Positions 1 through 16,011 of a stretch of 64,000 bases of DNA are shown here, piece by piece. Each line of letters begins with the position of its first letter. Positions within the stretch are counted from its first letter, which is position 1. Under the pieces are notes generated by a model, which worked only from the letters and a program-made list of their open reading frames with translations, made no database searches and had not been told where the DNA came from. The stretch comes from Bacteroidales bacterium (lineage in GTDB: Bacteria; Bacteroidota; Bacteroidia; Bacteroidales; UBA4181): the NCBI GenBank assembly GCA_031547085.1, contig JAVBSH010000064.1, forward strand, positions 7,707 through 71,706. The letters are read 5' to 3'. The translations under genes were made by a program, and so were the position numbers.

Positions 1-27
1 GGCCAATTATTTCATCATCTAAAACCA

Positions 28-3000
28 ATGACCATGAGCACGAGAATATGGAACCTGTTTTCTCCCAAGCCGGTGGTGCTGTTGCCGCTCCGCATGGAGA
101 TCAGTTACAGGAATGAGAATAAAACAGCAAAGATACGCTGGTATCCGGACGACTGCCATTTGTATATGGATGAAAAGGAGATGGCTTCGTCGGACTCAAG
201 CATGGATTTTGCCCTTGGCGAAGGCTTCAAGCTGCACACTTTTCCCGAACGTATTTACCTATATACCGTCAGCGCGGATGGTTATATGCGCCGCCTTAAA
301 AAATGCAACAAACTGAACCCCGATCTTCGTTTCAAGTTGCCCCAATTGACGCCGGATGTGGATAATAACCAGCCGGCAGACCCGTCGGTGCAGTGGTTGA
401 CGGATTTTGTCGATGCCGAAAAGAACGGGATGGGCGCTACCATCGAAGGACTCCGGTTCAAGCGCTTGAAGAAAGCCGAATGGCTGATTGCCATGGGGGT
501 ACGGAAGAATTCGGGAATGATCCTGCACGACTTGTTGGCGTATTTCCGGAAAACCGATGCGTTGCGGATCCTCCGTCCGGGCGAACCGACCAATAATTCG
601 GAGGATGAGTTGGTGGAACCGCTTCCCGATGAAATAGATGAATTAGACGTTGAGGATGTGAACGACGCCGACGAGCCGATAGCTCCGGCAAAACAGCCGG
701 GACTGAAAACCAATGCCGATTTGCTGAAGGAATACCTGAAAACAGACGAATTTGACGCCGATCCGAATGCCGGGCAGATAGACCACAGTCCGCTTGGATT
801 TGTCAATACATTGATGGAAACGGCCTGTTTCAAAAATCTGGAGCCGAATGCAATCATCAACAAACTCAACTTTCCCAAGCTCTTCCAAAACATGGCGGAC
901 AAGCGCAGGATCAAGAAAGCCAAAAGCGTTTACCGCGATCACCTGAACCCTTCGGGACATCTGCCGGCCATTCGCATTGGCGACAACCCTTACGGAATTG
1001 TATTGACCTATCGCAAAGGCATGTTTGGCGAGGCTCCTTTTTACGAAAAATACAAAAATGAGCTTAAAAAGCTGTCCCGTTCGCACAACCGCACATTGCA
1101 CACGTACCGGAAAGACTCGTTGGCCGACCGCATGAATGCCGTGTTGCGCCAAAGGCCCGGGTCGAACCGGATCGATATCAAGGAAGGCGAGGTGAAAGAT
1201 GTGTTGCGCACCGACCAGATGGAGAATGTGCAACACAAAATCATCCGCGATGTCTTAGATAATGTGGGGATAATTCTTTTCGAAGACTTGAAGAATACAC
1301 TCCTCGACGTCAAAAACAGTCTTGAACGGAATAAAAGTTTTTTGGGTGTCAATACCTATTTTGAAAAGATTTTCAGGTACTACCTTTTGAATATGAAAGC
1401 TTGGGATGAGGCCGACTACACAGTCTTCTTCAACAATATGGTAATACTTGAGGATAAATACAATGAAATCGAAAAAATTAAGGTAGAGATGATGAAATTG
1501 TGCGACGAGTCCGGCACTACCGTCAGGCAGATACTGGACAAGTTCGATGAGATTGATAATGTCACCAAGAGCTTACGTTTGTCCGATACCTTGCGGAGTT
1601 TTTTTGCTTCACAAATGGATGCGTCGCCTTTCATTGATTTAAGTGAAGATTTATTCAAGGATTTTTGGACAAAAGTCGAGGATATGAAAAAACAAGTCTA
1701 TGATTTACTCTATTCGACGAAAAGTTCATTAGATGGAGAAACCAAGGCAGAATTGCAAAACTCGAAAACGATCAAGGAATTATTGGAGTTACACCCTCCT
1801 GCAGGAGTGAAGCTTACAGACGAAGAAGAACTTATTGAAAAAGAAAATCTTCTGAAAAAAAACGGAAGTGCCCTCTCTACGGTGAAAGCATTGATTAGCT
1901 TGGGCACCATTGCCGATAACCTCAGAATGATATGTACCGATGTTTTCAGTTTCACCCAAAAGCCGCCCCAATCATCCGTTTATTGCCCGATAGTCAGAAG
2001 CATGTTGAAAGACGTCAAGGAACCGGACACCACTCTCTTAGGATACACGTCCATTTTTGTAAAAGCAGCCGTGCAACAGACACAGGCTGTTCTAGTGGAC
2101 GAAGTTAAAAAAGAAGGTGAAGGCGAAACCGAAAAGATTATCGATCATTTTATCAATTACAAAAAAGCGATTGATGATTTCAAGGTGCTCACCAAGGATG
2201 TAAAAATCGTAAGGGCGGCCGTTGAACGCTTGCTGTATCAGCAGGTGCATTGGGACAGGCATATTATCTGTAATTTCTTAGAATTGTCGGCGCTGAATAC
2301 CATTACCGACGCCAAATTGATTGCCAGCATGACCGATGCTGCCGAGCTGGCGGAAAAAATGGTAGGCGAAAACAAACAGGTGAGTATTGAATTGTTTCAA
2401 AGCAAGATATACGACCTCATCGATGCCTTTTCGTACCGGATGGACGCCTGGTTTACGGCATACGCCGATAAACTGTTGAAAAAACGCAACAAACACCAAT
2501 TGGCGGAGCGCAGCATGGGCGTTTTTGGTTGGTTGGAAAAACCGGTGACCGACACGCCGAAGGCAGTCGGGCAACAGATGAACGAATATTTCCAGGCGCC
2601 GTCCATCGACCAGGCCAAAACCGTAGCGGTGTTGCGGGCGGCCTCGCTGGCCGAAGAGGAGGCCTACCAGATCAACCTTTCGGCTAAGCGTGTGCAATTG
2701 GCCAACTGGTACGGCGAAGGATTGGCCTGCGGCTATTCCGAGTCGGAGTTGCTGGGCTATTTCATTGAACGCGAAATCAACGATGACCCCGACAACAACG
2801 GCATCCTGAAAATTTACATCCCGCCCCTGCGGAAAAAGTACCCGATGGAGTCGAAAAGCATCACGGTGGATGATCCGAAATATACGTTGAAATTAATTGA
2901 CGGGAAAAAGTTTGCCGATGAAGCAGATTTTAATGCGGTATTAAGCATCGGAGATTTTAATGACTTGAGTTTTCCGTCCGGAAATAAAAATATCAGAGGC

Positions 3001-4893
3001 ATCTGCAATGATAAAATCAAAAAGATCGCCGAAAAAGCCGCTTTGATCAGGGATGCATTCGCCGACCTGGCTTTTGCCGAGACCACCTACCAGCATATAC
3101 GCGGCAACCGCGCCCGCGAAAACGCATGGTTGCAGGTAGCCAAAGGCGAATTGCTGCCGATGCCGGCCGAATTCACCGAGTCCTTCCGGACAGGCACGCG
3201 CTTGTTCCAGAAAGTCATTATCCCGATTGGCCGGGCACCGGAAACAGCCGGTTTGTATATGGATGACGGGCAGGCCAACCCGCGCAATGTGGTCGATATT
3301 CATATTTCGTCATTCTGCCGCAACGTATTCGAGCAATTCCGCTATGCATCGTTCGGTTTGAAGGTTTCCCCATCGTTTGACCAGTTATTTCCGCTTACCG
3401 GAACCGATGACGGGAGGGAAGTAAACGCCAGGGGCTTATTCCCCGGCATCATCGACATCGCCGAAACAGGCTTGGATGTGATTGACCTTGCTTTGGGCGG
3501 TAAAAACGAATTGGAGTCGGCCTTGAAGATGGTGATCCTGAAACATGCCCGCAGCATGACAAGCGACGAAGCCATACTGGAAAAACTGTTGCAGTTGCTC
3601 AACAGCCTGTCGTTATACGACGATATCTACGAACCATCGATTGATGGTATGGACAGTCAGGTGGAAAAAATCAGGACCCTTTTGATGATGGCTCCGCCCG
3701 TGACCATGGATCTGTTCGAACAAACTTCCGGCAGCCTTTCCGAACAGGTTTCCGGACAAATGAAACAGGCTAGGCGGCTCAAAGCCATCTGCGAAAAGTT
3801 GGTGAAACAAGCGTACATGAGCATCGACAAGCTGAACGGTGTAACGTTGGCCGGAATGGTAGATCAATGCAGTATCTACGATTTTCATTACGTTGGTGTT
3901 CCCAATATGCTGGAATTAGCCGCTATGGAAGGCTTTGACCTCCGGGCGATGCTGACCGTCAGAAACGCATACCTGACGGAAATCGAAGACTTGCTGAATG
4001 GTAACATCAAGCTCTACAATTACGAAAAGGTAACCATCGCCAAAGTGACCGGACTATTCGGGACACCTAAGGTGGAATTTGATGACCGCGAACCGTTCGG
4101 CGAACCCGAGGAAGGCGCTACCATCGAAGATAAAGCTATCAGTATCGCCTTGGAAAGGATGATTCTAAAACTGGAACATATCATTCAAAATTTTAGCGGT
4201 AAGAACTGGATGATTGCTCCTTTGCCGGAACTCGACGGCATTACGATGAAACAAGCAGCCGTGAATAGCGATGCCCAACTGAAACAGGTCGCTAAGGTTA
4301 GGAAGCCTTTGGAAATCCTGTTCCAATTGCCGTTCGAGCATGACCTTGCCTTTAGCGAAGGCGCACCGGACGAGTTATTCGACTTCCGACATGCGGCTTC
4401 ACCTGATGAGGAAGATGCGGATAAAACTGACGACAACCGTCCGGAAATTTGTTATCATATTGTCCGCACCGGCGACGAAAGCGGCTTTGTATACGGCCTA
4501 TTGGTCGACGAATGGACGGAGAACATTACCGGGCCCACGGAAACGTCGGCTTTGCTGGTGAACTACGACGCCCCGCAGAGCGAACCGCCCAACTGCCTGA
4601 TCATGGCTGTTCCCAATGTGATGCAATGGTGGTGGGACAATCGCAAGGTGGCGAAATCCATCCGCAATGTCATCGATGCCATGAAAATCCGCTCAATCAC
4701 CACCGATGAAGTGGAGATAGCATCGTTTGCTCATCTTTTCCCGCCGTTTACGCACAGTTTCACCCACAGCGATGGCATTGCTAAAAGCGCCGCCGGCAGC
4801 GAGCCGGAAAGCATCGACTGCAAACCGGCTGTCACTCAAGAGACTGGCAGCGGTCTGGCTTCATACGATACCGAATTCAACATTAAACAATAA
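28..4893 (+). CDS. Large uncharacterised protein (1621 aa), no signal peptide
   Basis: Long ORF with motif-like blocks (LLPLRME, IRWYPDDCH, GHLPAIRIGDNPYGI, SYRMDAW, QAPSIDQA, LLGYFIER, GLLVDEW, NYDAPQSEPP) and a helical K/E-rich central part; function unknown. Confidence 0.9.
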   Translation: MTMSTRIWNLFSPKPVVLLPLRMEISYRNENKTAKIRWYPDDCHLYMDEKEMASSDSSMDFALGEGFKLHTFPERIYLYTVSADGYMRRLKKCNKLNPDLRFKLPQLTPDVDNNQPADPSVQWLTDFVDAEKNGMGATIEGLRFKRLKKAEWLIAMGVRKNSGMILHDLLAYFRKTDALRILRPGEPTNNSEDELVEPLPDEIDELDVEDVNDADEPIAPAKQPGLKTNADLLKEYLKTDEFDADPNAGQIDHSPLGFVNTLMETACFKNLEPNAIINKLNFPKLFQNMADKRRIKKAKSVYRDHLNPSGHLPAIRIGDNPYGIVLTYRKGMFGEAPFYEKYKNELKKLSRSHNRTLHTYRKDSLADRMNAVLRQRPGSNRIDIKEGEVKDVLRTDQMENVQHKIIRDVLDNVGIILFEDLKNTLLDVKNSLERNKSFLGVNTYFEKIFRYYLLNMKAWDEADYTVFFNNMVILEDKYNEIEKIKVEMMKLCDESGTTVRQILDKFDEIDNVTKSLRLSDTLRSFFASQMDASPFIDLSEDLFKDFWTKVEDMKKQVYDLLYSTKSSLDGETKAELQNSKTIKELLELHPPAGVKLTDEEELIEKENLLKKNGSALSTVKALISLGTIADNLRMICTDVFSFTQKPPQSSVYCPIVRSMLKDVKEPDTTLLGYTSIFVKAAVQQTQAVLVDEVKKEGEGETEKIIDHFINYKKAIDDFKVLTKDVKIVRAAVERLLYQQVHWDRHIICNFLELSALNTITDAKLIASMTDAAELAEKMVGENKQVSIELFQSKIYDLIDAFSYRMDAWFTAYADKLLKKRNKHQLAERSMGVFGWLEKPVTDTPKAVGQQMNEYFQAPSIDQAKTVAVLRAASLAEEEAYQINLSAKRVQLANWYGEGLACGYSESELLGYFIEREINDDPDNNGILKIYIPPLRKKYPMESKSITVDDPKYTLKLIDGKKFADEADFNAVLSIGDFNDLSFPSGNKNIRGICNDKIKKIAEKAALIRDAFADLAFAETTYQHIRGNRARENAWLQVAKGELLPMPAEFTESFRTGTRLFQKVIIPIGRAPETAGLYMDDGQANPRNVVDIHISSFCRNVFEQFRYASFGLKVSPSFDQLFPLTGTDDGREVNARGLFPGIIDIAETGLDVIDLALGGKNELESALKMVILKHARSMTSDEAILEKLLQLLNSLSLYDDIYEPSIDGMDSQVEKIRTLLMMAPPVTMDLFEQTSGSLSEQVSGQMKQARRLKAICEKLVKQAYMSIDKLNGVTLAGMVDQCSIYDFHYVGVPNMLELAAMEGFDLRAMLTVRNAYLTEIEDLLNGNIKLYNYEKVTIAKVTGLFGTPKVEFDDREPFGEPEEGATIEDKAISIALERMILKLEHIIQNFSGKNWMIAPLPELDGITMKQAAVNSDAQLKQVAKVRKPLEILFQLPFEHDLAFSEGAPDELFDFRHAASPDEEDADKTDDNRPEICYHIVRTGDESGFVYGLLVDEWTENITGPTETSALLVNYDAPQSEPPNCLIMAVPNVMQWWWDNRKVAKSIRNVIDAMKIRSITTDEVEIASFAHLFPPFTHSFTHSDGIAKSAAGSEPESIDCKPAVTQETGSGLASYDTEFNIKQ

Positions 4894-4898
4894 CGATC

Positions 4899-6344
4899 AT
4901 GGTACATTTTATCCAAAAATTCATTGCCCGTCAGTTCGACCATGAGGAAGAGAAAGCAGCAATACCGGTTGAAACAGGGGAAAATAGCACCAAAAGCAGC
5001 TATCATCCTTCCATCAAGGAAGGGTTGCAGGCAAAAGTAAAAGACCCGCTCTGGTTCCTTTGCCGGCAGTGGCAAATGGCCGAATTTGAGGCCGGCAACG
5101 GCGGTTCGCCGATCCGTATGACCTACGAGATTGAAGACCGATCGATGGACGAGATCGTTTATCATGACGGACACGCTCAAATTTTCGATATTTCCGTTCC
5201 CTTGGAACCGATCATCGAAGGAGGCTCGGACAAGTCGATGTTCGACAACGCTGCCGGTTTCGAGGACGATGTCATTTCCGACCAGATACAGAAAACACCC
5301 AGGGCATGGAAAAGCGACCGTTTGGAGTATTCGTTCAAACTACGCGAAAGCAGTGAACCTGACAATGCCAGAAAGATGGTGCTGAATGCCAGGGAATATT
5401 TTGGCGAAAGGATGGATTGGTACAGTTTCACGCTGAACAAAAAAGCCCAGGCAACGAATACCAGGAAGATCGAAAGTATTCCACAACCGGTGGATTTTCC
5501 CGGAATGCCCAAGGTGAGGTTTTGGGAGTTTGAAGACTACCGCATTAACATCGAGAATCTGGTGCGGGATCATCCGTTGACGATGCTGCTCACCGACTTT
5601 TTGATGCTGTTTTCCAACGATTATTTCATCTTCCCGATGGAGCAAACCGCAGGCACCCTCCGCAGCATCGGCAAGGTGGAAGTGACCGACGTGTTCGGCG
5701 ATACGGTTGCCATCCAACCGCATGTCACCGTGCAGGACGACGGGTTCGCCTTGTTTGCCCACAACGAGGACGACAACTCCGACAGCGTTCGCTGTACATC
5801 GGCCAACCTGTTCCTACCGAACAAGATTGCCCAGTCGTACACCAGCGACCCGCTGGAAGAAATCATTTTCTACCGCGACGAAATACAAGAGATGGTGTGG
5901 GCTGTGGAACGAAAGTACTGGAACAAGGGTGTAATCGACCGCGCCGACGAATTGAGCCGTAAAGAACCCGAACAAACACAAGCAGCAGGCAATACAAAGT
6001 CATCCTTGCCAAAGTACATCATCAAAACACCTGTTCCCGAACACTGGATACCCTACCAGCCGCAGCAAACCGGTAACAGCCAGTTCATCCTCCGGCGGGC
6101 GCGTACCGACAGCAAGTTCAACAAAGACAACCCGCAGTACAAGTCGGCCATCCTCTCCGAGTCGAAATGGATTTGCGAGGAAGAAATACAGTCCGTGCCG
6201 GTATTGTTGACTCAATACGTGGAAATGACCAGCGTACAAACAGGCGACGAAAGAAAACGTATCTTCTGGATCGGCCGCCAAAAACAAAGGGGTAAAATGA
6301 AGGAACAGATCAAATTAAGCTTCGACCGGCTCGAAAAGGTTTAG
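4899..6344 (+). CDS. Uncharacterised protein (481 aa), co-transcribed with the upstream ORF
   Basis: 5-bp gap after the upstream stop; motifs DPLWFLCRQWQMAEF, GMPKVRFWEFED, FSNDYF, RDEIQEMVWAVER, VPEHWIPY; no signal peptide. Confidence 0.9.
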   Translation: MVHFIQKFIARQFDHEEEKAAIPVETGENSTKSSYHPSIKEGLQAKVKDPLWFLCRQWQMAEFEAGNGGSPIRMTYEIEDRSMDEIVYHDGHAQIFDISVPLEPIIEGGSDKSMFDNAAGFEDDVISDQIQKTPRAWKSDRLEYSFKLRESSEPDNARKMVLNAREYFGERMDWYSFTLNKKAQATNTRKIESIPQPVDFPGMPKVRFWEFEDYRINIENLVRDHPLTMLLTDFLMLFSNDYFIFPMEQTAGTLRSIGKVEVTDVFGDTVAIQPHVTVQDDGFALFAHNEDDNSDSVRCTSANLFLPNKIAQSYTSDPLEEIIFYRDEIQEMVWAVERKYWNKGVIDRADELSRKEPEQTQAAGNTKSSLPKYIIKTPVPEHWIPYQPQQTGNSQFILRRARTDSKFNKDNPQYKSAILSESKWICEEEIQSVPVLLTQYVEMTSVQTGDERKRIFWIGRQKQRGKMKEQIKLSFDRLEKV

Positions 6345-6373
6345 AAAAACATAAACATTTAAAATTTAAGCGT

Positions 6374-6751
6374 ATGGAAAGTAAGAATAATGTAATAACG
6401 ATTGCTTTATTAGTGATTATCGGCATATTATGTATCGTAAATTTATTTTGGAACAAAGAAAGTGACAGTCTTAATAAAGCTATCAACACGATCAATATAA
6501 TGCAAAAAGACCTTGAGGGCATAAAAGGCAGCGTATCAAGCGCAAATGGCTCCATTACAGCCATTTTAGACAGTCTAAAAAAAACCAATTCAGCATTGAG
6601 CATACTTGAAAAAGATCGCGAAAAGATTGAAGAAGACATGGCGCAATTGTTAAATAAACACAAAAAAACTTTGGAAGGTTTGATTGTTGAGATAAAAAAG
6701 AACCAAGAAAAAAACAGAGTGCTTCGAACAGAAGCGGAAGCCTATAAGTAA
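6374..6751 (+). CDS. N-terminal TM-anchored coiled-coil protein (i-spanin-like)
   Basis: One hydrophobic helix (VITIALLVIIGILCIVNLFW) then heptad-rich coiled coil; upstream of the endolysin. Confidence 0.6.
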   Translation: MESKNNVITIALLVIIGILCIVNLFWNKESDSLNKAINTINIMQKDLEGIKGSVSSANGSITAILDSLKKTNSALSILEKDREKIEEDMAQLLNKHKKTLEGLIVEIKKNQEKNRVLRTEAEAYK

Positions 6752-6794
6752 GAGAGACTCAAGTAATAAAAAATTAAACTTAAAAAATTGAATA

Positions 6795-7361
6795 ATGAAA
6801 TATATATGTTTTTTATTCTTGCTTTATGCAACAACCAGCGGAATATATGCTCAAGGAGATCCATTTAAACTTCCTGACATTGATTTTTGTTCGTCATTCG
6901 ACAAGCCTTTAACGCTTCTCAAGGGACAATCTATTGCTTTTACAGTTCCCTGCGACACGCTGTACATCATCAATAAAGGGAGATTTAACATGTATGACAA
7001 GCTCCACAGTTGGATTTTATCAGGAAAATCGGACTCGCTAAGTAACGTATTATTGAATATACACTTGTCAATGATGGATAGTACTGCCGTATTTTTCAAA
7101 AAGTTGAATGACAGTAATAAAGATTTGGAAAGGCTTGCTAAAGATATGAATAAATACACCACAACCACTCTCACACAAGCGCAAATATCACTGAATTCAA
7201 CTATGGAATCATTAGATAAAGCTTCAAAAGATATAGCTGAAGTGAAGGAAAATTTAGACAAAGCGCGTAAGGAAATCAGATGCGACAGGTGGAAAGCCGG
7301 CATTATTGGTGGCGGTGCGGGCTTTGTGCTTGCAACAACTCTATTTCTGATTTTTAATTAA
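6795..7361 (+). CDS. Exported coiled-coil protein with C-terminal Gly-rich TM helix (spanin-like)
   Basis: Signal peptide MKYICFLFLLYATTSGIYA, coiled coil, C-terminal GIIGGGAGFVLATTLFLIF. Confidence 0.55.
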   Translation: MKYICFLFLLYATTSGIYAQGDPFKLPDIDFCSSFDKPLTLLKGQSIAFTVPCDTLYIINKGRFNMYDKLHSWILSGKSDSLSNVLLNIHLSMMDSTAVFFKKLNDSNKDLERLAKDMNKYTTTTLTQAQISLNSTMESLDKASKDIAEVKENLDKARKEIRCDRWKAGIIGGGAGFVLATTLFLIFN

Positions 7362-7372
7362 AACCTTACATC

Positions 7373-8164
7373 ATGCAAACCATTTCAAAAAACGCAACAA
7401 ATCCGGATGTTGTCATCTTACAGCAATTATTGTCTGCACATGGTTTTCCGGTATCTTTTACAGGTATTTTTGACAACGCAACCGATATCGAGACACGCCG
7501 GTTCCAGAAAGCAAAAGGGTTGAAAGACGATGGGATCGTGGGGCCTGTTACATGGACAGAGCTTAAGCGCCTAGATCATCTCATATTGATTGACAACGGA
7601 CATGGATATGATACCCCGGGAAAACGTTCACCGCAATGGGCCGATGGCTCGCAACTTTTCGAATGGGAGTATACCCGGGAAATAGCGCAACGTGTAGAAT
7701 CAGAACTGAGAAAGCATAAAGTTCACGTGGTAAGAATCGTGCCGGAAGATATCAATATCCTGCTAGCCGACCGTTGCAAACGGGTCAACAACCTTACAGG
7801 ATTAGTAGGGGCTGATCAATGTTTTTTGGTTTCGATACATTGTAATGCTTTTGATGGCCAAGCCCGTGGTTGGGAAATACATACTTTTTCGGATGCCGGC
7901 AAAAGTACAGGGTATGCAACCAAATTCTGGAATACTGCCCGGGATTTGCTCAATGGCATTAGCACGATGCGTTCGCAAAGCGCAAATCATCCCGTACGGA
8001 ACAGCAATTTTATGATTTTGCGAAACACACAATGTGCTGCAGCATTGACTGAAAACCTGTTCATGGATAATGAAAAGGATTGCCGGTATTTGCTATCACC
8101 CGAAGGTAAGTCAACCATTACGCAAATTCATGCACAAGCAATATGCAAAATATTGGGAAAATAA
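7373..8164 (+). CDS. N-acetylmuramoyl-L-alanine amidase (Amidase_3) with N-terminal peptidoglycan-binding domain; endolysin-like
   Basis: PG_binding_1 pattern (LQQLL..FQKAKGLKDDGIVGPVTW); Zn-site motifs DNGHG, FEWEY, SIHCNA, TENLFMDN; no signal peptide. Confidence 0.9.
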   Translation: MQTISKNATNPDVVILQQLLSAHGFPVSFTGIFDNATDIETRRFQKAKGLKDDGIVGPVTWTELKRLDHLILIDNGHGYDTPGKRSPQWADGSQLFEWEYTREIAQRVESELRKHKVHVVRIVPEDINILLADRCKRVNNLTGLVGADQCFLVSIHCNAFDGQARGWEIHTFSDAGKSTGYATKFWNTARDLLNGISTMRSQSANHPVRNSNFMILRNTQCAAALTENLFMDNEKDCRYLLSPEGKSTITQIHAQAICKILGK

Positions 8165-8192
8165 ATAATAACTGAATTATAAAAATAAGATC

Positions 8193-8429
8193 ATGAAAAA
8201 GATTGCAGATTTTTTTTATTGTGTGTTAACATTAGCAGGATTAATCGTCGGCACGATTTATTTATTCTGGAAAGGCCAGTGGCTTATCGGTAGTGCCATG
8301 ACCATCGGATTTTTTTGGCATTTGATCAAGATATGGAAAGACCTGGTCGGGAGTATTCGATGGATCATCTGCGGATTTAAGAAAACTGTGGACAATACGA
8401 AAAAACAATTGGATACCACCACAGAATAG
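8193..8429 (+). CDS. Small 2-TM membrane protein (holin-like)
   Basis: 78 aa, two hydrophobic segments, charged C-tail, directly after the amidase. Confidence 0.55.
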   Translation: MKKIADFFYCVLTLAGLIVGTIYLFWKGQWLIGSAMTIGFFWHLIKIWKDLVGSIRWIICGFKKTVDNTKKQLDTTTE

Positions 8430-8475
8430 GCTTTTGACGTCTGAAAATAATTTTATAACATAAAACAGAATAAAA

Positions 8476-8889
8476 ATGGAACAGAACTTTTCTCAAGAAT
8501 TTGTAGGATATATAATTGGTACAGGGTCTCCTGCTTTTGTAATTGCTTCGATAATATTTATCTTATGCGGATCTTTTATCAATATTGCATTTGACGTACA
8601 CAATCGTAATGAAAAATCGAAAAATACACCTCAAAAATTTTCCTGGTCATTTTTTTGGCTCGACAATAAATTACGCATAATCCTTTGCATTATCATGGCG
8701 CTTTGTGTCGCTCGTTTTTTTTCTGATATTTTCCCGCAACAAAAGTTAAGTTTATTTAAAGCATTCTGCCTTGGCTTAATCTTCGATTGGATGTTGGTGT
8801 TTCTGCGCCATTTGCAACGTCTGATCAAACAAAAATTCAATATCAAAGAATTTGGAAGAGCTGAATCGCCAGACATCACAGAACAGTGA
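8476..8889 (+). CDS. 3-TM membrane protein (holin-like)
   Basis: 137 aa, three hydrophobic segments, basic C-terminal tail; last gene of the operon. Confidence 0.6.
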   Translation: MEQNFSQEFVGYIIGTGSPAFVIASIIFILCGSFINIAFDVHNRNEKSKNTPQKFSWSFFWLDNKLRIILCIIMALCVARFFSDIFPQQKLSLFKAFCLGLIFDWMLVFLRHLQRLIKQKFNIKEFGRAESPDITEQ

Positions 8890-8955: not shown

Positions 8956-8989
8956 AATGGGGTGGTCCCAAAGATCGAGCCACCCCATT
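8956..8989 (-). terminator. Intrinsic terminator downstream of TBDR-1
   Basis: Perfect 10-bp stem aatggggtgg/ccaccccatt followed by a T-rich run on the minus strand. Confidence 0.75.
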
Positions 8990-9006: not shown

Positions 9007-11406
9007 TTAAAACTCTACATGCACCCCCCAATACCATTGGGCACCCGTTTTATCCATAAATCCAAACTCCTGCGATTTCGAATTGAAAATATTGTTCACA
9101 TTCATGAAAACGGAACAGGATCTCATGAACTGGTATGCAACGCGCAAGTTCACCAGCATTTTGGCTTTAATATCGAAAGAGCCATATTCATGGATCAAGG
9201 TTTGTTTGCTAAAGCCATAACCGGTTGATGTGATCGTCCAGTCACTGGTAGGCAACCAGTTGACCTCAAATCCGCCATAAAATGATGGGGTAGCCTTATT
9301 GGTGGTATTAACCAAACTATCACGGATATTGCTGATCGCCGTATTATCACTCCAAATACCCGGTTTACCGGCTATATAGGCATCTGCCAAATCGGATTTT
9401 TCATCGGCTGTCAGCACATCATGTTTTTTTAGTTCGGTATACTGGTAGGTACCAAATAAGCGGAAATTTAAATATTGATTGATCACTACGCCTATTTCTG
9501 CGGTTGCACCATACTGTTGACTCGTTTCCTTGACATTATTATATGTCTGATGCCGTTCATAAGGGTAAGGGGTATTGGTGTACTGATTAAGGGTATAATG
9601 TATGGTATCGATCCCCAGCACACTAATATCCTTCAGCTTGGTGTAGAAAGCCTCACCGCTGAACAACACATGTTTTCCCAATTTGCGCCGGTAGCCCAAC
9701 TCAAACATGTCCATGATTGCTAGTTCGAGATTCGGATTTCCATCTAAGTTCACCGTAAAATGATTTTTGGGATCGGGATTAGCGGGAGTATCGAAAGAAT
9801 GCATATACGGTGCAGGAAATACGTTATTGATGATCAGTGATGCATTCGATTTCATGTCGAGCATGAATGGGCTGCGGTTGGCACGAGAATAAGTAGCCCG
9901 GATCGAACTATTTTCGTATAATTTATAATTGGCCACCAATTGCCAGGTGGGGTACCCTTTATCGGGATCGGTATTCTGTTCGTAACGGAATGCACCCACC
10001 AAACGGAGTTTTTTGAATAGAGAATAGTCCAAACGTATGCTGGGCGCAAAGGAACTCATGATTGCTTCGCCGTTAAGGTACGAATCTTCACCGGGTATCA
10101 CGTAGGGAATGTCGTTCAACATGCTCCTCGCATAGCTTAATCCTGGACGAACATTCAATCGTTTATCCAATAATTGAAAATTATAATCGGCATTCACATA
10201 TAAGTTACCCAAGTCGAGTTTATAACCAGGCGATCCCATCGACATATCTTCAGTACCCCACATATAGCTTGCCTGCAGATTAAAACCATATATCATCGTG
10301 CGCATATCGACATACTGGGTTTCAAATTTCCGGGAAGTATGCGCAACAAAACCATTGTCGGTATTGGAAGAAATGGTAGTAGAACGTTGCGTCCCGATAG
10401 CAAAGTCGACATTGATGTTTTCGGTCGGGTTATAGAATATATAACCATTTGCGCCATATGCATCCAACGATAGCGAAGGATCATCATACATGGCATCAGG
10501 GTCCATCCCCACCAGTGTTACCGAATCCACGGGGTAATAGCCGCTTGCGGGAAGTTTTGGCGTCAAAGATTCTGATCTCCACATCCACACATCTTCCTGC
10601 GCCCGGTCGCGGTAATTGTAATTTCCTGAGAATCTGAATTTCAATTTGTCGTTTATTCCGAAAGAAATGGCCAGGTTTTGTGCACCGGAAACCGCCATTG
10701 AAGAAGCCCCCTCATTAAAACGATTACCCGACTGAAGGTTAGCCTCTACCGAAGGTTTTTTCGAAGCCACTTTTTGTGTGATGATATTGATCACACCCGT
10801 AACAGCATTAGCGCCATAAAGAGCGCTTGCAGGCCCTCGAACCACTTCAATGCGGTCGATATCGGCCAAGCCTATTGGTAATGATTCCCAGAAAGTACCG
10901 CCCGTAGTGTAGTTATACACAGGGCGTCCATCAATCATTACCAGGGTAAGCGTATTTTCGGACATGTAAGTTTGCTGTCCGCTTGGAATATTTTCATTAC
11001 CACGGATATGCACATCGTAATTACCATTAGTTTTCTCACGGACAATGATGCCGGGAATTAATCGTAATGCTTCGGGTATGGAAAGAACACCGGCACGGGC
11101 AATATCTTCAGCCGATATTACGGAAGTGGATAATGGCGTATCAAAAAAACTTTCGCTTGACTTGGATGCGATGGATACATCTTTATTAAGCACCATATTG
11201 AATAAATCATCAATGGAAACGCCCACAATATCAGCCAATCTCATTAGCTCATCTAACGGAAGGTCGGCTAACTGGTCGTAACTCATAGACAGTATGTCTT
11301 CCTTGGTCATTTTGTCAATCGGTTTCTGAGCAAAACCGGCTGTAGCGCTCAACATCACAACTAAAAGTATTACGCCTATTTTACGGGTTATATCAAGTAT
11401 TTTCAT
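9007..11406 (-). CDS. TonB-dependent receptor (YfiR-associated type), copy 1
   Basis: Signal peptide; plug motifs TLVMIDGRPVY and IDRIEVVRGPASALYGANAVTGVINIIT; C-terminal F; likely start MKILD (ORF extends to 11439). Confidence 0.9.
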   Translation of the reverse strand: MKILDITRKIGVILLVVMLSATAGFAQKPIDKMTKEDILSMSYDQLADLPLDELMRLADIVGVSIDDLFNMVLNKDVSIASKSSESFFDTPLSTSVISAEDIARAGVLSIPEALRLIPGIIVREKTNGNYDVHIRGNENIPSGQQTYMSENTLTLVMIDGRPVYNYTTGGTFWESLPIGLADIDRIEVVRGPASALYGANAVTGVINIITQKVASKKPSVEANLQSGNRFNEGASSMAVSGAQNLAISFGINDKLKFRFSGNYNYRDRAQEDVWMWRSESLTPKLPASGYYPVDSVTLVGMDPDAMYDDPSLSLDAYGANGYIFYNPTENINVDFAIGTQRSTTISSNTDNGFVAHTSRKFETQYVDMRTMIYGFNLQASYMWGTEDMSMGSPGYKLDLGNLYVNADYNFQLLDKRLNVRPGLSYARSMLNDIPYVIPGEDSYLNGEAIMSSFAPSIRLDYSLFKKLRLVGAFRYEQNTDPDKGYPTWQLVANYKLYENSSIRATYSRANRSPFMLDMKSNASLIINNVFPAPYMHSFDTPANPDPKNHFTVNLDGNPNLELAIMDMFELGYRRKLGKHVLFSGEAFYTKLKDISVLGIDTIHYTLNQYTNTPYPYERHQTYNNVKETSQQYGATAEIGVVINQYLNFRLFGTYQYTELKKHDVLTADEKSDLADAYIAGKPGIWSDNTAISNIRDSLVNTTNKATPSFYGGFEVNWLPTSDWTITSTGYGFSKQTLIHEYGSFDIKAKMLVNLRVAYQFMRSCSVFMNVNNIFNSKSQEFGFMDKTGAQWYWGVHVEF

Positions 11407-11438
11407 TACAGTTATTTTTTCAATTATTACACTTTTCA

Positions 11439-11945
11439 TTAAATGACAATGCCTAAATTAGCCAATGTACTGGCCATTTGCAGTCCCTGTTTTTGGAAAC
11501 GCGCCTTGTTGATCTCAAAATTGAGTTTTCCGCCAACAATCACATAATTGATACAGGCGCCCTGCTGTGCCAATCCATCCTTATCGGTAACCAACAGAAC
11601 AGGCTTACCTTCCACTTTCGACAATACAGCGCTGAAATCACTGCTTTTGTCCGTGGGGAGGTATAAGATATGACATTTGTCAACGGCACCGGGATTGTCT
11701 ACCTTTTTTACCACAATATTTTGCTGTCCGACCTTTTTACTGGCTGCCACTTTTTGCAACTCGCCAATGACAGGCGAATCGCCAAGCACGGCAATAATAA
11801 AATCGCCTTGCTTCATATCGGCAGGCCATTCTACATTCTTGGTAAAATTATACATGAACAATGCTTTAAACATTTCGTTCTGCGCCAATGTGACCGATAA
11901 CGGGCACAATAGGAACAACAACATGATCATAAAAAGTTTCTTCAT
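11439..11945 (-). CDS. YfiR/HmsC (DUF4154) periplasmic protein, copy 1
   Basis: KALFMYNFTKNVEWP, CHILY, INY..KLNFEIN, signal peptide; likely start MKKLF. Confidence 0.85.
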   Translation of the reverse strand: MKKLFMIMLLFLLCPLSVTLAQNEMFKALFMYNFTKNVEWPADMKQGDFIIAVLGDSPVIGELQKVAASKKVGQQNIVVKKVDNPGAVDKCHILYLPTDKSSDFSAVLSKVEGKPVLLVTDKDGLAQQGACINYVIVGGKLNFEINKARFQKQGLQMASTLANLGIVI

Positions 11946-12125
11946 CTTTTCAAATGATTTTGAGTTAAAAACATCTATTTTATACGCAACTAAACACATT
12001 TAGTTACACTTTGTTTTGTATTTTTTATTCTCAAGTATACTTCAACAAAGGCAGGATAATATTTTATTTTATGTTGATAATAAACATATTACACATCTAT
12101 GTGGTCAATATTAAATATAAAAACA

Positions 12126-12301
12126 ATATGATTATCAGGCACTATGCCTAAAGAGATATTTCCACGCGCGTACTCATACCTCGTACGTCATTGTAAACCA
12201 TAGATTGACTGCGTTGCTCCCTTCGGGGGAGTGCAGCATGCGGAGTGGAGACATCTTTGAGTTATTTTATCCTCTTTAGGCATCAAAAACGATCATCATA
12301 T
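12126..12301. repeat. Inverted-repeat-bounded element A (MITE-like)
   Basis: atatgattatcaggcactatgcctaaagag ... ctctttaggcatcaaaaacgatcatcatat; same end family as 12533-12729. Confidence 0.55.
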
Positions 12302-12392
12302 AAATTATACAACCGGTATAAACCAAATATCAACTATTCCGTAAAACAAAACATTAAAAAGCATGTGCATAAAATGTTATTTTGCCGGCTTC

Positions 12393-12441
12393 TTAGCTGT
12401 ACTTATCCTATACTTTAGCTGTACTTATCCTGTACTTGTCC
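12393..12441. repeat. Short tandem repeat
   Basis: ttagctgtacttatcct twice (22-bp period) plus partial gtacttgtcc. Confidence 0.7.
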
Positions 12442-12487
12442 CAACTGAACAGGTTTGCTCAGATTAATTGTGTATTAATAAAACAAA

Positions 12488-12519
12488 ACAATGACAGGTT
12501 TGGTTTAACCTGTCATTGT
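12488..12519 (-). terminator. Intrinsic terminator downstream of TBDR-2
   Basis: 13-bp perfect stem acaatgacaggtt/aacctgtcattgt, T-run on the minus strand. Confidence 0.75.
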
Positions 12520-12532
12520 CCTTTATAATTTA

Positions 12533-12729
12533 ATATGATTATCGGGCATCATGCCTATACGATTGAAAAATCACGTTCAGCGTAGTCTCCAGACTACGCT
12601 GGGTTAAAAGGAAAGCTCCTGCTTTCCATATTTACAAGGCAGGAGCCTTGCTTTTAACTGCGACGTAGCGAAACGCTACGCCGAACAGTCCGACCAACAA
12701 ACATTGGGCATGATAACCGATAATCATAT
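12533..12729. mobile_element. MITE-like element B with 23-bp terminal inverted repeats enclosing a REP/REPIN-like multi-hairpin (12575-12686)
   Basis: TIR atatgattatcgggcatcatgcc vs ggcatgataaccgataatcatat (21/23); the inner 112 bp recur inverted at 15860-15971. Confidence 0.65.
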
Positions 12730-12732
12730 AAT

Positions 12733-15171
12733 TTAAAATCCGATACGCAAACCCCAATACCAAATAGCCTCTGTTTTATCCATGAATCCAAATTCGTGAG
12801 ATTCCGAATTAAAGATGTTGTTCACACTCATGAAAAAACTACTATTCTTGCCAAACTTGTATGCAGCACGAAGATTCACCAGCATTTTAGCCGGAATGTC
12901 GAAAGTACCATACTGGTGTACATAGGTCTGCTTGGTAAATCCATAACCTGTGGATGTAAAAGACCATTTATCCGAAGGCAACCAATTCAATTCGTACCCG
13001 CCATAGAACGTAGGCGTTGCTTCATTATTACCATCAACAAAGTTATCGGCAACCTGATCCCAAGTATAGGTTACGTCATCGGTACTCCAGTCTACATTAG
13101 GATCGTTAGTTGCACCGTCGGCCATGTGAGCGGTCCTGTTTCCTGTGTATGTGCTATGGTTTTTCAAATCGGTCTGCTGCAAAGTACCGAACAAACGGAA
13201 ATTCCATGCACGGTTGATAACCACGCCTACCTCGGCTGTAGCTCCTATTTGTTGGCTTGTCTCCTTAATATTGCTGTAAGTGTTGTGCTGTGCATACGTA
13301 TATACCAAAGGAGGCCCACCACGATATGTAAACGGAGCCGGATAACCGCCCATTACATTGGTCATCATCACCTTGTCGGCATCCATTGAACTCATATCCC
13401 GCAACTTACTGTAAAACAACTCCATATTCAATAATACGTGTTGTCCCAGTTTCTGACGATACCCCAGTTCAACCATATCCATAACAGCCAGTTTCAGATT
13501 TTTATTACCTTCAAGATAAGCTGTATATCGGTTTTTAGGATCGGATGGATCGAGGGAATGAATCAACGAGCTTCCCAATCCAGGTACATCGATCATGATC
13601 TTGTCGCGCATTACCAGTGTGGCATCGGCTTGCACATCGAGCATAAAAGGGCTACGGTTGGCACGGGAATATACCATACGTACCGAACTACCCTTATTGA
13701 TGCGGTAATTGGCTATCAGCTGCCAGGTAGGATAACCCTTATCAGGATCCGCATTTTGCTCATAACGGAAAGCGCCGACGAAACGCAATTGTTCGATAGG
13801 TTTATAATCAACCCGAAGACTCGGTGCAAACGAACTCAATGTTTCCCCGGCATTGAGAAAAACTTGCGCATATGCATTGTCTGAAACTTTGGATGTAGAA
13901 TAACTAAACCCGGGACGAATCCCCAACTTTTTACCCAGCAACTCGAAATTATAATCCAGGTTAATATTGAATGCCGAAATGTCAAACTCATATCCAAGCG
14001 AACCCAACGATAGGTTTTCATATCCCCACATATAATTAGTTTGTAGGTTGAACCCGTATGCAGAAGCCCTTAAATCGGCATATTGTGTCTCTATTTTGCG
14101 GGTAGTGTGGGCTACAAATCCCATGTCGGTATTGGACGAAATCACAGTTGAACGTTGCAAACCGGTTGACAGGTTGACACTGATTTCAGGATTCGGATCG
14201 TAAAACGCATACCCGTTGAACGAATAAGCATCCAGAGCCATGGTGGGATCTTCGTACATTTCATCAGCATCCATTCCTACAAGGGAAACGTCCTCCACCG
14301 GGTAATAACCTCTTTCGGCAAGGTCGGGAGTCTGGTTATCATCTTTCCACAAGTATACATCTTCCTGGGCGCGGTCGCGATAATTGTAATTACCCGATAG
14401 CCTGAACTTCAATTTATCATTAGCGCCAATCGACAGCCCCAGATTTTGCGATCCGGAAGTAGCCATTCCCGAAGGCATACTGGCAAAACGGTTACCCGAT
14501 TGTATGGCTGCATCTACCGAAGGTTTTTTGGAATCTACTTTTTTGGAAATAATATTAATGACACCTGTTACAGCATTGGGGCCATACAACGCACTTGCCG
14601 GACCGCGAACCACTTCGATACGGTCAACATCATTCAGGCCAATAGGTAATGATTCCCAGAAAGTTCCGCCAGTAGCATAATTATACACCGGGCGGCCATC
14701 GATCATCACCAAAGTCAATGTATTTTCGGAAAAAATCGTTACCTGTCCGTAAGGAATGTTGTCGTTTCCACGGATATGGATATCGTAATTTCCATTGGTT
14801 TTTTCGCGTACGATCACTCCGGGGATCAACCTCATAGCCTCAGGTATGGATAACACGCCCGAACGCACAATATCTTCGGAAGTAAGCACCGTTGTGGATA
14901 AAGGAGTATCGAAAAAGCTTTCGCTTGATTTGGAAGCAATAGATACATCTTTATTCAGCACCATATTGAACAAGTCATCAATGGAAACGCCCACAATATC
15001 AGCTAATCTCATCAACTCATCTAACGGAAGATCGGCTAACTGGTCATAACTCATGGCCAACACATCTTCCTTGGTCATTTTATCAATTGGCTTTTGTGCC
15101 ACAGCAACGGCACAAAACATCATCATTAAAAGTATGATGCTTATTTTACGAAACGTGTGAAAAATTTTCAT
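12733..15171 (-). CDS. TonB-dependent receptor (YfiR-associated type), copy 2
   Basis: Paralogue of 9007-11406; same plug motifs; C-terminal F. Confidence 0.9.
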   Translation of the reverse strand: MKIFHTFRKISIILLMMMFCAVAVAQKPIDKMTKEDVLAMSYDQLADLPLDELMRLADIVGVSIDDLFNMVLNKDVSIASKSSESFFDTPLSTTVLTSEDIVRSGVLSIPEAMRLIPGVIVREKTNGNYDIHIRGNDNIPYGQVTIFSENTLTLVMIDGRPVYNYATGGTFWESLPIGLNDVDRIEVVRGPASALYGPNAVTGVINIISKKVDSKKPSVDAAIQSGNRFASMPSGMATSGSQNLGLSIGANDKLKFRLSGNYNYRDRAQEDVYLWKDDNQTPDLAERGYYPVEDVSLVGMDADEMYEDPTMALDAYSFNGYAFYDPNPEISVNLSTGLQRSTVISSNTDMGFVAHTTRKIETQYADLRASAYGFNLQTNYMWGYENLSLGSLGYEFDISAFNINLDYNFELLGKKLGIRPGFSYSTSKVSDNAYAQVFLNAGETLSSFAPSLRVDYKPIEQLRFVGAFRYEQNADPDKGYPTWQLIANYRINKGSSVRMVYSRANRSPFMLDVQADATLVMRDKIMIDVPGLGSSLIHSLDPSDPKNRYTAYLEGNKNLKLAVMDMVELGYRQKLGQHVLLNMELFYSKLRDMSSMDADKVMMTNVMGGYPAPFTYRGGPPLVYTYAQHNTYSNIKETSQQIGATAEVGVVINRAWNFRLFGTLQQTDLKNHSTYTGNRTAHMADGATNDPNVDWSTDDVTYTWDQVADNFVDGNNEATPTFYGGYELNWLPSDKWSFTSTGYGFTKQTYVHQYGTFDIPAKMLVNLRAAYKFGKNSSFFMSVNNIFNSESHEFGFMDKTEAIWYWGLRIGF

Positions 15172-15208
15172 TATAGTTGTTTTCTATTATTAATTTACTT
15201 CTTATTCA

Positions 15209-15715
15209 TTAAATGACAATGCCTAAATTAGCCAAAGTACTGGCCATTTGCAGTCCCTGTTTTTGGAATCGCGCCTTGTTGATCTCAAAATTGAGCTTTC
15301 CACCAACAATCACATAGTTGATACAGGCACCTTGTTGTGCCAACCCATCCTTATCGGTAACCAGCAAAACAGGCTTGCCTTCCACTTTTGACAATACAGC
15401 ACTGAAATCACTGCTTTTGTCCGTAGGCAAATATAGGATATGGCATTTATCAATGGCGCCGGGATTGTCTACCTTCTTCACCACAATATTCTGCTGCCCG
15501 ACTTTTTTACTGGCGGCCACTTTTTGCAATTCGCCAATGACAGGCGAATCGCCCAGCACGGCAATAATAAAATCGCCTTGTTTCATATCGGCAGGCCATT
15601 CCACATTCTTGGTAAAATTATACATGAACAATGCTTTAAACATTTCATTCTGCGCCAGCGTAACCGCAAATGGACACAAGAGAAACAGTAACATGATCAC
15701 AAAAACTTTTCTCAT
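15209..15715 (-). CDS. YfiR/HmsC (DUF4154) periplasmic protein, copy 2
   Basis: Mature part differs from copy 1 at one residue (GAVDK/GAIDK). Confidence 0.85.
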   Translation of the reverse strand: MRKVFVIMLLFLLCPFAVTLAQNEMFKALFMYNFTKNVEWPADMKQGDFIIAVLGDSPVIGELQKVAASKKVGQQNIVVKKVDNPGAIDKCHILYLPTDKSSDFSAVLSKVEGKPVLLVTDKDGLAQQGACINYVIVGGKLNFEINKARFQKQGLQMASTLANLGIVI

Positions 15716-15859
15716 TTTTATATTTATTTTTATTATTTTTCAATCCGTTATACGGGATAAAACAGATTTAGTTTCATTTTGTTTATCATTTTATACCAAG
15801 GTGAAAATGGTTTTAGCTTTGCTGAGCTCGCAAGCTCGGTTCGGATTTTCCGAAGTGGC

Positions 15860-15971
15860 ATTCGGCGTAGCGTCTTCGCTCCGTCGCAGCTAAAAGCAAG
15901 GCTCCTGCCTTGCATGGTGGAAAGCAGGAGCTTTCCTTTTAGCGCGACGGAGTCTGGAGACTCCGCCGAAC
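15860..15971. repeat. REP/REPIN-like palindromic element, inverted copy of 12575-12686
   Basis: ttcggcgtagcg...aaaagcaaggctcctgccttg...ggaaagcaggagctttcctttt...agtctggagact...gaac matches the reverse complement of 12575-12686. Confidence 0.8.
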
Positions 15972-16011
15972 AACGATCCGAAAACCACTTTCACTTTAGT
16001 ATATATGACAA

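Follow-up and report, generated by a model that had tools for sequence, protein, structure and literature searches.

Within a 64,000-nucleotide stretch from the genome of a gut Bacteroidales bacterium (GenBank assembly GCA_031547085.1, contig JAVBSH010000064.1, positions 7,707 to 71,706; hereafter the window), seven co-oriented genes encode two large proteins, here called C and D, followed by five small proteins that include a peptidoglycan (PG) hydrolase and a holin candidate. The initial annotation, made from the window alone, had described the seven genes as closely spaced and the operon as probably extending to the left. All seven open reading frames (ORFs) are present on the plus strand, with gaps of 5-46 nt between them. 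The window starts at position 7707 of its contig (G000:C230:7707), and the upstream DNA was retrieved and read: the frame that ends at window position 22 is a gene of 903 amino acids (aa), B, and before it lies a 664-aa gene, A, of the DUF6603 family. Nine co-oriented genes make up the unit, the seven in the window being its back end (Table 1), and C and D are the third and fourth genes of a conserved core, A-B-C-D. The annotation was partly right; it missed the two upstream core genes and a slot for exchangeable enzymes that usually lies before A in other loci.

The unit is preceded by a divergent AraC regulator gene, rpsL and rpsG, with A starting 450 bp past the AraC gene, and is followed by convergent TonB-receptor genes; there is no prophage context, and the locus does not read as an extracellular contractile injection system (eCIS) or toxin complex (Tc) locus. 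The annotation had likewise reported no capsid, tail, terminase or integrase, and no such family scored above a meaningful threshold among the window genes in Pfam, PHROG or NCBIfam.

Table 1. Features of the nine-gene unit and its downstream border; TM, transmembrane segment. Plain coordinates are window positions, and those beginning with G000:C230 are contig positions.
Feature	Coordinates	Strand	Description
Gene A	G000:C230:3010-5004, upstream of window (locus L001)		664-aa DUF6603 protein (PF20248 E 3e-84)
Gene B	G000:C230:5017-7728, mostly upstream of window (locus L001)		903-aa conserved core protein, no family
Last codons of gene B	1..22	+	Frame end ANYFII-stop at 22
Gene C	28..4893	+	1621-aa conserved core protein; N- and C-terminal parts conserved, middle variable
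Gene D	4899..6344	+	481-aa beta-rich core protein, short subfamily, no fold match
125-aa protein	6374..6751	+	N-terminal TM (7-25) and coiled coil; inner-spanin-like, weak
188-aa protein	6795..7361	+	Read as signal peptide, coiled coil and C-terminal TM; possible spanin partner
263-aa protein	7373..8164	+	Signal-less PG-binding and Amidase_3 peptidoglycan hydrolase, endolysin type
78-aa protein	8193..8429	+	Small membrane protein with TM segment; holin-like by size only
137-aa protein	8476..8889	+	Three TMs; best holin candidate
GC-rich hairpin	8956..8989	.	Between convergent genes; T-run on minus strand
TonB-dependent receptor gene	9007-11439	-	Convergent; Plug domain

A conserved four-gene core with an exchangeable enzyme slot

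A search with D listed 47 matches including D itself; the others were 24-35% identical and none carried a name. At least 604 D relatives were confirmed among the 612 pattern matches listed in GTDB genomes, and the core occurs in hundreds of bacterial and archaeal species. This bears out the annotation's view of C and D as parts of an operon that is widespread yet uncharacterised, and the motifs it had listed recur as conserved consensus motifs in both proteins and do mark this operon. Gene order was read from the 80 loci retained from the genome scan for D relatives, in which A-B-C-D recurs in Actinomycetota, Bacteroidota, Pseudomonadota, Acidobacteriota, Chloroflexota, cyanobacteria and others. 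DUF6603 was present in all 50 D-carrying genomes tested (of those 80) and in none of 14 control genomes, and a profile of the C-terminal 950 residues of C recovered 5,853 clusters at E<=1e-10, fragments counted. The core also occurs on plasmids and in haloarchaea and Heimdallarchaeota, archaea without peptidoglycan. Its distribution is patchy (0/60 relatives, 7/400 Bacteroidota, 4/400 Bacteroidales), its neighbourhoods are mostly housekeeping genes rather than defence islands, and no conserved gene family was found downstream of D. The copy studied here keeps the invariant residues, and all nine frames are open.

B, C and D matched no family in Pfam, and C and D none in PHROG, NCBIfam or PADLOC; profiles of A-D found nothing among PDB sequences at E<0.02; the ESM Atlas gave no usable match for D, and B matched only hypothetical clusters there; and profile-profile comparison of B, C and D detected no paralogy, save a weak helical stretch shared by D and C (probability 40%). 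A literature search for DUF6603 and PF20248 found no paper, most subscription papers and supplements lying outside that search and a mention in a table being possible, and searches on eCIS with cargo, on beta-groove with operon and on gut expression returned nothing relevant. That the core is a real, undescribed system is well supported. A viral origin of the core was rejected: IMG/VR contained only one D match, partial and at a contig end, and the single record filed as a bacteriophage with a B/A match (MT835531.1, L173) appears to be mostly high-GC bacterial chromosome with a prophage end; its B/A match is no phage gene.

A divergent second subtype of the DUF6603 system (L153, L154, L155, L157, L158, L163, L164, L168) shares DUF6603 and the N-terminal domain of B; here A measures 1070-1600 aa, the B-like protein 650-810 aa and the C-like protein 1200-1300 aa, the fourth gene is fibre-like, and the subtype sometimes shares a genome with the first. 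Archaeal-looking loci (L193, L194, L196, P0008), kin to a Heimdallarchaeota protein, carry the permuted order C-D-enzyme-A-B.

The 14 kb upstream of A were read for 40 loci, and in 22 of them the adjacent co-oriented gene before A encodes an enzyme. Nine of these are PhoD-like (three by similarity to Pfam-called ones), four belong to M64, three to S8 and two to PLD (one by similarity), and a patatin, a tyrosinase, a galactose-oxidase-like and a glycoside-hydrolase-like protein occur once each; the other 18 slots contain large proteins without assignment or housekeeping genes, or have no co-oriented gene. Despite permuted gene order, the enzyme keeps its place directly before A in L053, L194 and L196, enzyme-A pairs are duplicated together in L139 and L167, and the PhoD form of the slot is also found in a haloarchaeon. 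As a hallmark of the system, this slot serves better than the lysis genes. Among 46 candidate cargo proteins, none carried a twin-arginine translocation motif and none a clear signal peptide, by a crude hydropathy measure on which some PhoD N-terminal strands score like a real signal. A loading motif common to the different enzyme classes was not found, except for a C-terminal domain common to the S8 proteins and L145. Enzymes of the PhoD, M64, tyrosinase, PG-binding and wall-glycosidase types have relatives that usually act outside the cytoplasm, and there are outward-facing hints in the neighbourhoods: in L062, D is followed by lectin and Gp10_C genes, and in L030 an eCIS comes straight after it. 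From these gene associations we infer that A may be a cargo adaptor and that the complex may act outside the cell.

Further genes were seen around individual loci. In L108 and L110 (G146), large toxin-like genes come after D, along with an SMI1/KNR4 immunity gene (in L110) and an additional DUF6603 gene. A short SpvB/TcB-like N-terminal fragment upstream of the core (L097:5141-5707, G080) was recognised by eye.

The annotation had proposed that C and D are subunits of a complex. Co-folding of C 1035-1590 with D 40-481 gave a score of 0.62, whereas none of three controls exceeded 0.00. The runs agreed in >=50% of contacts with a partner pLDDT (predicted local distance difference test) >=60, a mark reached by 116/157 solved and 2/215 mismatched pairs, counts that are only rough for the alignments used here. 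At the predicted interface, the conserved C strand 1496-1514 pairs with D 243-251, and natural fusions of C and D in one frame occur in L006 and L015. C is predicted to bind D by strand pairing, and for this pair the proposal is supported. C and D had also been called signal-less, and neither has a hydrophobic N-terminus or a 19-residue membrane segment by simple hydropathy (not SignalP).

The model of D is beta-rich (pLDDT 75). When the fold search suggested by the annotation was run, its best PDB match reached Z 4.0 and FN3-like matches Z ~3, none of them convincing; viral structures likewise gave nothing convincing, and a new fold is not thereby proven. For A, the model of a full-length protein from L111 (pLDDT 87) shows a helical domain (1-230) and, after it, an extended antiparallel meander (~240-880, ~640 residues), one face of which is 61% L/I/V/F with few Y/W while the other is polar. 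This would be consistent with an open hydrophobic sheet in the model. Foldseek listed SlpA, ApoB100, LptD and LPD-3 for it, all loose matches with a query TM-score (template modelling score) <=0.15; an outer-membrane barrel was dropped, since porins matched only at a root-mean-square deviation of 10-15 A (Z 13-14 at 11-15 A). The A of this locus lacks ~500 N-terminal residues and covers only positions 514-1066 of the full-length A profile. Inserts in B and D of some loci are of the FG-GAP, lamin-tail and Ig-like types.

The lysis genes behind D and the flanking DNA

The annotation had seen a full phage-type lysis cassette behind D, including a signal-less PG-binding amidase. The amidase is a solid assignment: the 263-aa protein combines PG_binding_1 and Amidase_3 (Pfam E 1e-12 and 3e-26), matches the endolysin family phrog_435 (E 4e-36), contains the catalytic motifs (DNGHG, EWEY, SIH and ENLFM present) and has no hydrophobic N-terminus; it is a sound endolysin-type enzyme. 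'Full' overstated the case, as no cassette protein matches a holin family in Pfam, PHROG or NCBIfam and the spanin signal is weak, without a lipobox. Of the two proteins called holin-like, the 137-aa one is a plausible holin. Its relatives, 31-42% identical, lie in two prophage-like regions of the same genome that encode a lytic transglycosylase, and relatives occur in 3/14 same-genus genomes, in G014 beside an Amidase_2 gene. The 78-aa protein, which matched no family in Pfam, PHROG or NCBIfam and no relative in the proteins searched, is holin-like by its size and TM segment only. The coiled-coil and membrane architecture described for the other two proteins is present in both. The 125-aa protein matches a PHROG Rz-like family at E 6.7e-4 and TIGR03495 at 18 bits against a cut-off of 92.75, the 188-aa protein had no homologue in a large database, and neither contains the lipobox expected of a lipoprotein outer spanin. 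The spanin and second-holin calls are weak, though the 125-aa and 188-aa proteins may form a non-canonical spanin pair.

The two prophage-like elements that hold relatives of the 137-aa protein (G000:C226, L084; G000:C60, L085) are related to each other and encode a lytic transglycosylase, holin-like genes and many small membrane proteins; the C226 element also has helicase/methylase-like genes, and similar regions occur in G009 and G010. Presumably they resemble non-tailed Bacteroidota prophages.

The hairpin that had been placed at the end of the operon is present; because its T-run is on the minus strand, it fits the convergent gene better. It is absent from the list of a terminator scan, and promoter and terminator scans of the locus gave chance-level output. 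Beyond it, window 9007-15715 (minus strand) holds a TonB-dependent receptor gene with a gene for a periplasmic partner, duplicated in tandem (810/186 aa and 812/168 aa); around the second pair (window 12686-15976), RNA and DNA runs both show joints that jump ~3.3 kb between short repeats, a probably repeat-driven event. Further downstream, at window 46817-52408 (plus strand), a low-GC stretch (~0.34) encodes a polymorphic-toxin-like protein of 1863 aa with FG-GAP, TcdB_toxin_midN and RHS repeats, followed by small genes.

Proposed release by lysis and competing explanations

We propose, at somewhat below even confidence, that C and D belong to a four-protein complex that normally carries an exchangeable enzyme and that is released in this genome by a captured phage-type lysis cassette. 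According to this model, A-D, all signal-less, would assemble into a large soluble complex in which each enzyme is docked by one A, while the sheet of A might hold hydrophobic cargo or lipid, or meet a target membrane; the scaffold would consist of B-C-D, with adhesin-like inserts in some cases. Most hosts would free the complex by other lysis routes. Here, the appended cassette would burst the producing cells and so release it, in the order of events known from type 10 secretion: the 137-aa holin would let the amidase reach the wall, after which the outer membrane would be removed by the 125-aa and 188-aa coiled-coil membrane proteins. As no enzyme gene is linked to this copy and its A is shortened, it may carry unlinked cargo or act without cargo. 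The complex would be a machine of a new kind, to which lysis is a rare and possibly co-opted add-on.

A public invertebrate-gut RNA run contains this stretch of the locus. One RNA contig of 14,608 nt, at a mean depth of 216, runs from 37 nt into A through the cassette to window position 9948; the flanks appear as short pieces at depth 3-17 and a nearby operon at 30-37, and a DNA run is flat over the locus at ~70-80. This suggests that the whole nine-gene unit is transcribed, on the basis of one study and the mean of one unstranded contig, from which the level of the cassette and a single transcript are not readable. This limit is one of several points that weigh against release by the cassette. 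The window copy has no enzyme gene before its shortened A, and in the 86%-complete genome neither the missing N-terminal part of A nor a cargo homologue was found, save one weak M64 match. The survey of lysis genes covered 162 other loci with the C-terminus of D, 144 of them unique and 120 with >=700 bp downstream; co-oriented downstream genes were scanned with Pfam, and opposite-strand genes were searched with the lysis proteins alone. One of these 120 loci (L213) has an amidase after D, as do 0/4 other Bacteroidales genomes, a count that speaks mainly to hydrolases because holins are hard to detect; in L050, a PG-binding protein lies ~2 kb downstream. The core is present in the archaea without peptidoglycan mentioned above. 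At the D/cassette border, the GC content at third codon positions drops: it is 0.60-0.64 across A-D but 0.33-0.48 over the cassette genes (contig median 0.49), so that core and cassette differ in origin. Finally, a stand-alone cassette encoding holin-like, Amidase_2, TM-coiled-coil and signal-coiled-coil-TM proteins (G014:C90, L187 8588-10230, minus strand) sits behind an unrelated leucine-rich-repeat lipoprotein gene with no phage genes around. Its architecture supports the holin and spanin-like readings here, and since it stands alone, it also indicates that such modules are free-standing and move freely in the genus.

Export by lysis as a general rule is not supported, given the single amidase in 120 loci, the archaea lacking a peptidoglycan wall and the look-alike cassette in G014. 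Homologues do stand beside a lysis gene in L213, but rarely. Given the one locus in 120, lysis pairing is rare and not a defining feature, and this rarity, the wall-less archaea and the differing codon composition together place the cassette outside the core. In L213, an Amidase_3 gene begins 51 nt past D, and the contig end truncates the N-terminal-TM protein that comes next. A tree of 50 hand-picked D sequences (FastTree, midpoint-rooted) puts the D of L213 in a long-form clade, apart from the window's D, which has a long branch. The pairing of core and amidase therefore probably arose at least twice.

These observations also bear on a doubtful alternative in which the core is real and the lysis genes are passengers: a mobile orphan holin-amidase-spanin module of Bacteroidales would have landed behind D and be read through without any role in release. 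The rarity of the pairing, the composition break after D, the stand-alone cassette in G014 and the occurrence of 137-aa relatives within prophage-like regions, both here and in related genomes, are all as expected of such a passenger. However, the D/cassette junction is only 29 nt, with no mobile-element gene nearby, all five cassette frames are intact, and the phylogenetically separate L213 has an amidase at the same position; moreover, the RNA contig is unbroken over the cassette while the flanks fragment, and an expressed lysis module kept by accident would be costly.

The window copy has lost its cargo and the N-terminus of A and has gained lysis genes, which could also reflect an intracellular role. 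It is improbable that the core is a conflict or enzyme-caging system that holds a hydrolase until a trigger such as a phage, the cassette here replacing the lost enzyme as a self-destruct output. PLD, patatin and S8 domains are also defence effectors, cargo proteins gave weak DrmC and IetS matches, the spread is patchy (0/60, 7/400 and 4/400, as above) and the N-termini are not signal-like. Against caging, 14 core proteins found no match in PADLOC (2023), save one coiled-coil match at E 0.007, the neighbourhoods are mostly housekeeping genes rather than defence islands, several cargo types have relatives usually active outside the cytoplasm, and the adhesin-like inserts and the immunity gene point outward. 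The same loss of ~500 residues of A, the missing cargo gene and the long branch of the window's D might instead mark a decaying remnant, with half of A deleted and no working machine; this is more improbable still, because nine frames are open, invariant residues are kept, the C-D interface is still predicted and the RNA depth greatly exceeds that of the flanks. A prophage remnant or an unrecognised eCIS or Tc locus, as the phage-type amidase and holin candidate and the eCIS genes adjoining a few other copies of the core (L030, L122) could hint, is very improbable given the AraC, rpsL and rpsG neighbours, the lack of PHROG matches for C and D and of PDB sequence matches for the A-D profiles at E<0.02, the one partial D match in IMG/VR and the bacterial look of the single phage record with B.

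Release of the complex by the captured cassette remains our preferred reading. It can be extended, rather speculatively and with the balance of likelihood against it, to A-B-C-D as an effector particle released by lysis and forming a fourth kind next to Tc, eCIS and tailocins, in which A would load a swappable enzyme and B-C-D would deliver it to the membranes or walls of neighbours, the captured, co-transcribed type-10-like cassette betraying the export route. If true, such particles would be common to thousands of bacteria and archaea, with phosphatases, lipases, proteases and oxidases as enzyme classes. Thousands of clusters across many bacterial phyla and archaea share a fixed four-subunit layout, a predicted interface, one subunit for which no fold match was found, and a plug-in enzyme slot; none of this was found in the literature searched. 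The main question for this family is how signal-less giant proteins and enzymes leave the cell, and the window locus and L213 offer a first answer that is concrete and testable, namely that a captured cassette lyses the cell. The core is carried by the cultured Chitinophaga filiformis, Pedobacter heparinus, Nitrosomonas ureae and Streptomyces, from which purification should be straightforward.

Comparison with known systems

Gene A is a member of Pfam DUF6603 (PF20248), an uncharacterised family, whereas its three companion genes belong to no family. In its long amphipathic antiparallel meander, A loosely resembles bridge-like lipid-transfer proteins of the LPD-3 and TamB type, ApoB100 and outer-membrane barrels. 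The matches are loose (LPD-3 against the A model: Foldseek E 1e-3, TM-score 0.07), and A differs in having no signal peptide or membrane anchor and in being present in monoderms and archaea.

With eCIS (PVC, Afp) and tailocins, the system has in common a patchy environmental spread that includes archaea, variable effectors and, as proposed here, release by lysis, and eCIS genes lie adjacent in L030 and L122. In contrast, the nine-gene unit contains no sheath, tube, baseplate, spike or ATPase gene: Pfam detected no eCIS or tailocin gene among the nine, PHROG and NCBIfam none among the window genes, and the best match of D to an eCIS chain reached Z 2.6. The likeness to Tc (ABC) toxins lies in an operon of huge signal-less subunits, an exchangeable enzyme and an occasional lysis cassette. 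Unlike in Tc toxins, no SpvB, FG-GAP, RHS, TcdB or TcA domain was detected in A-D by Pfam or by PDB sequence searches with their profiles, the C profile finding no sequence-level PDB match, and the cargo is a separate full-length enzyme gene rather than an RHS C-terminal tip.

The closest parallel for the cassette is type 10 secretion. In Yersinia entomophaga, the YenLC cassette releases YenTc by lysis, and lysis cassettes occur directly within Tc operons (PMC10847048). The present putative cassette belongs to a Bacteroidales host and has Amidase_3 with a PG-binding domain where the type 10 systems have the cross-link peptidase PepB/ChiX; it has no lipoprotein outer spanin, and the putative cargo is unrelated to Tc. 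What it shares with YenLC and with Serratia ChiWXYZ is a holin candidate, a signal-less peptidoglycan hydrolase and spanin-like proteins, encoded outside any prophage and beside very large signal-less proteins.

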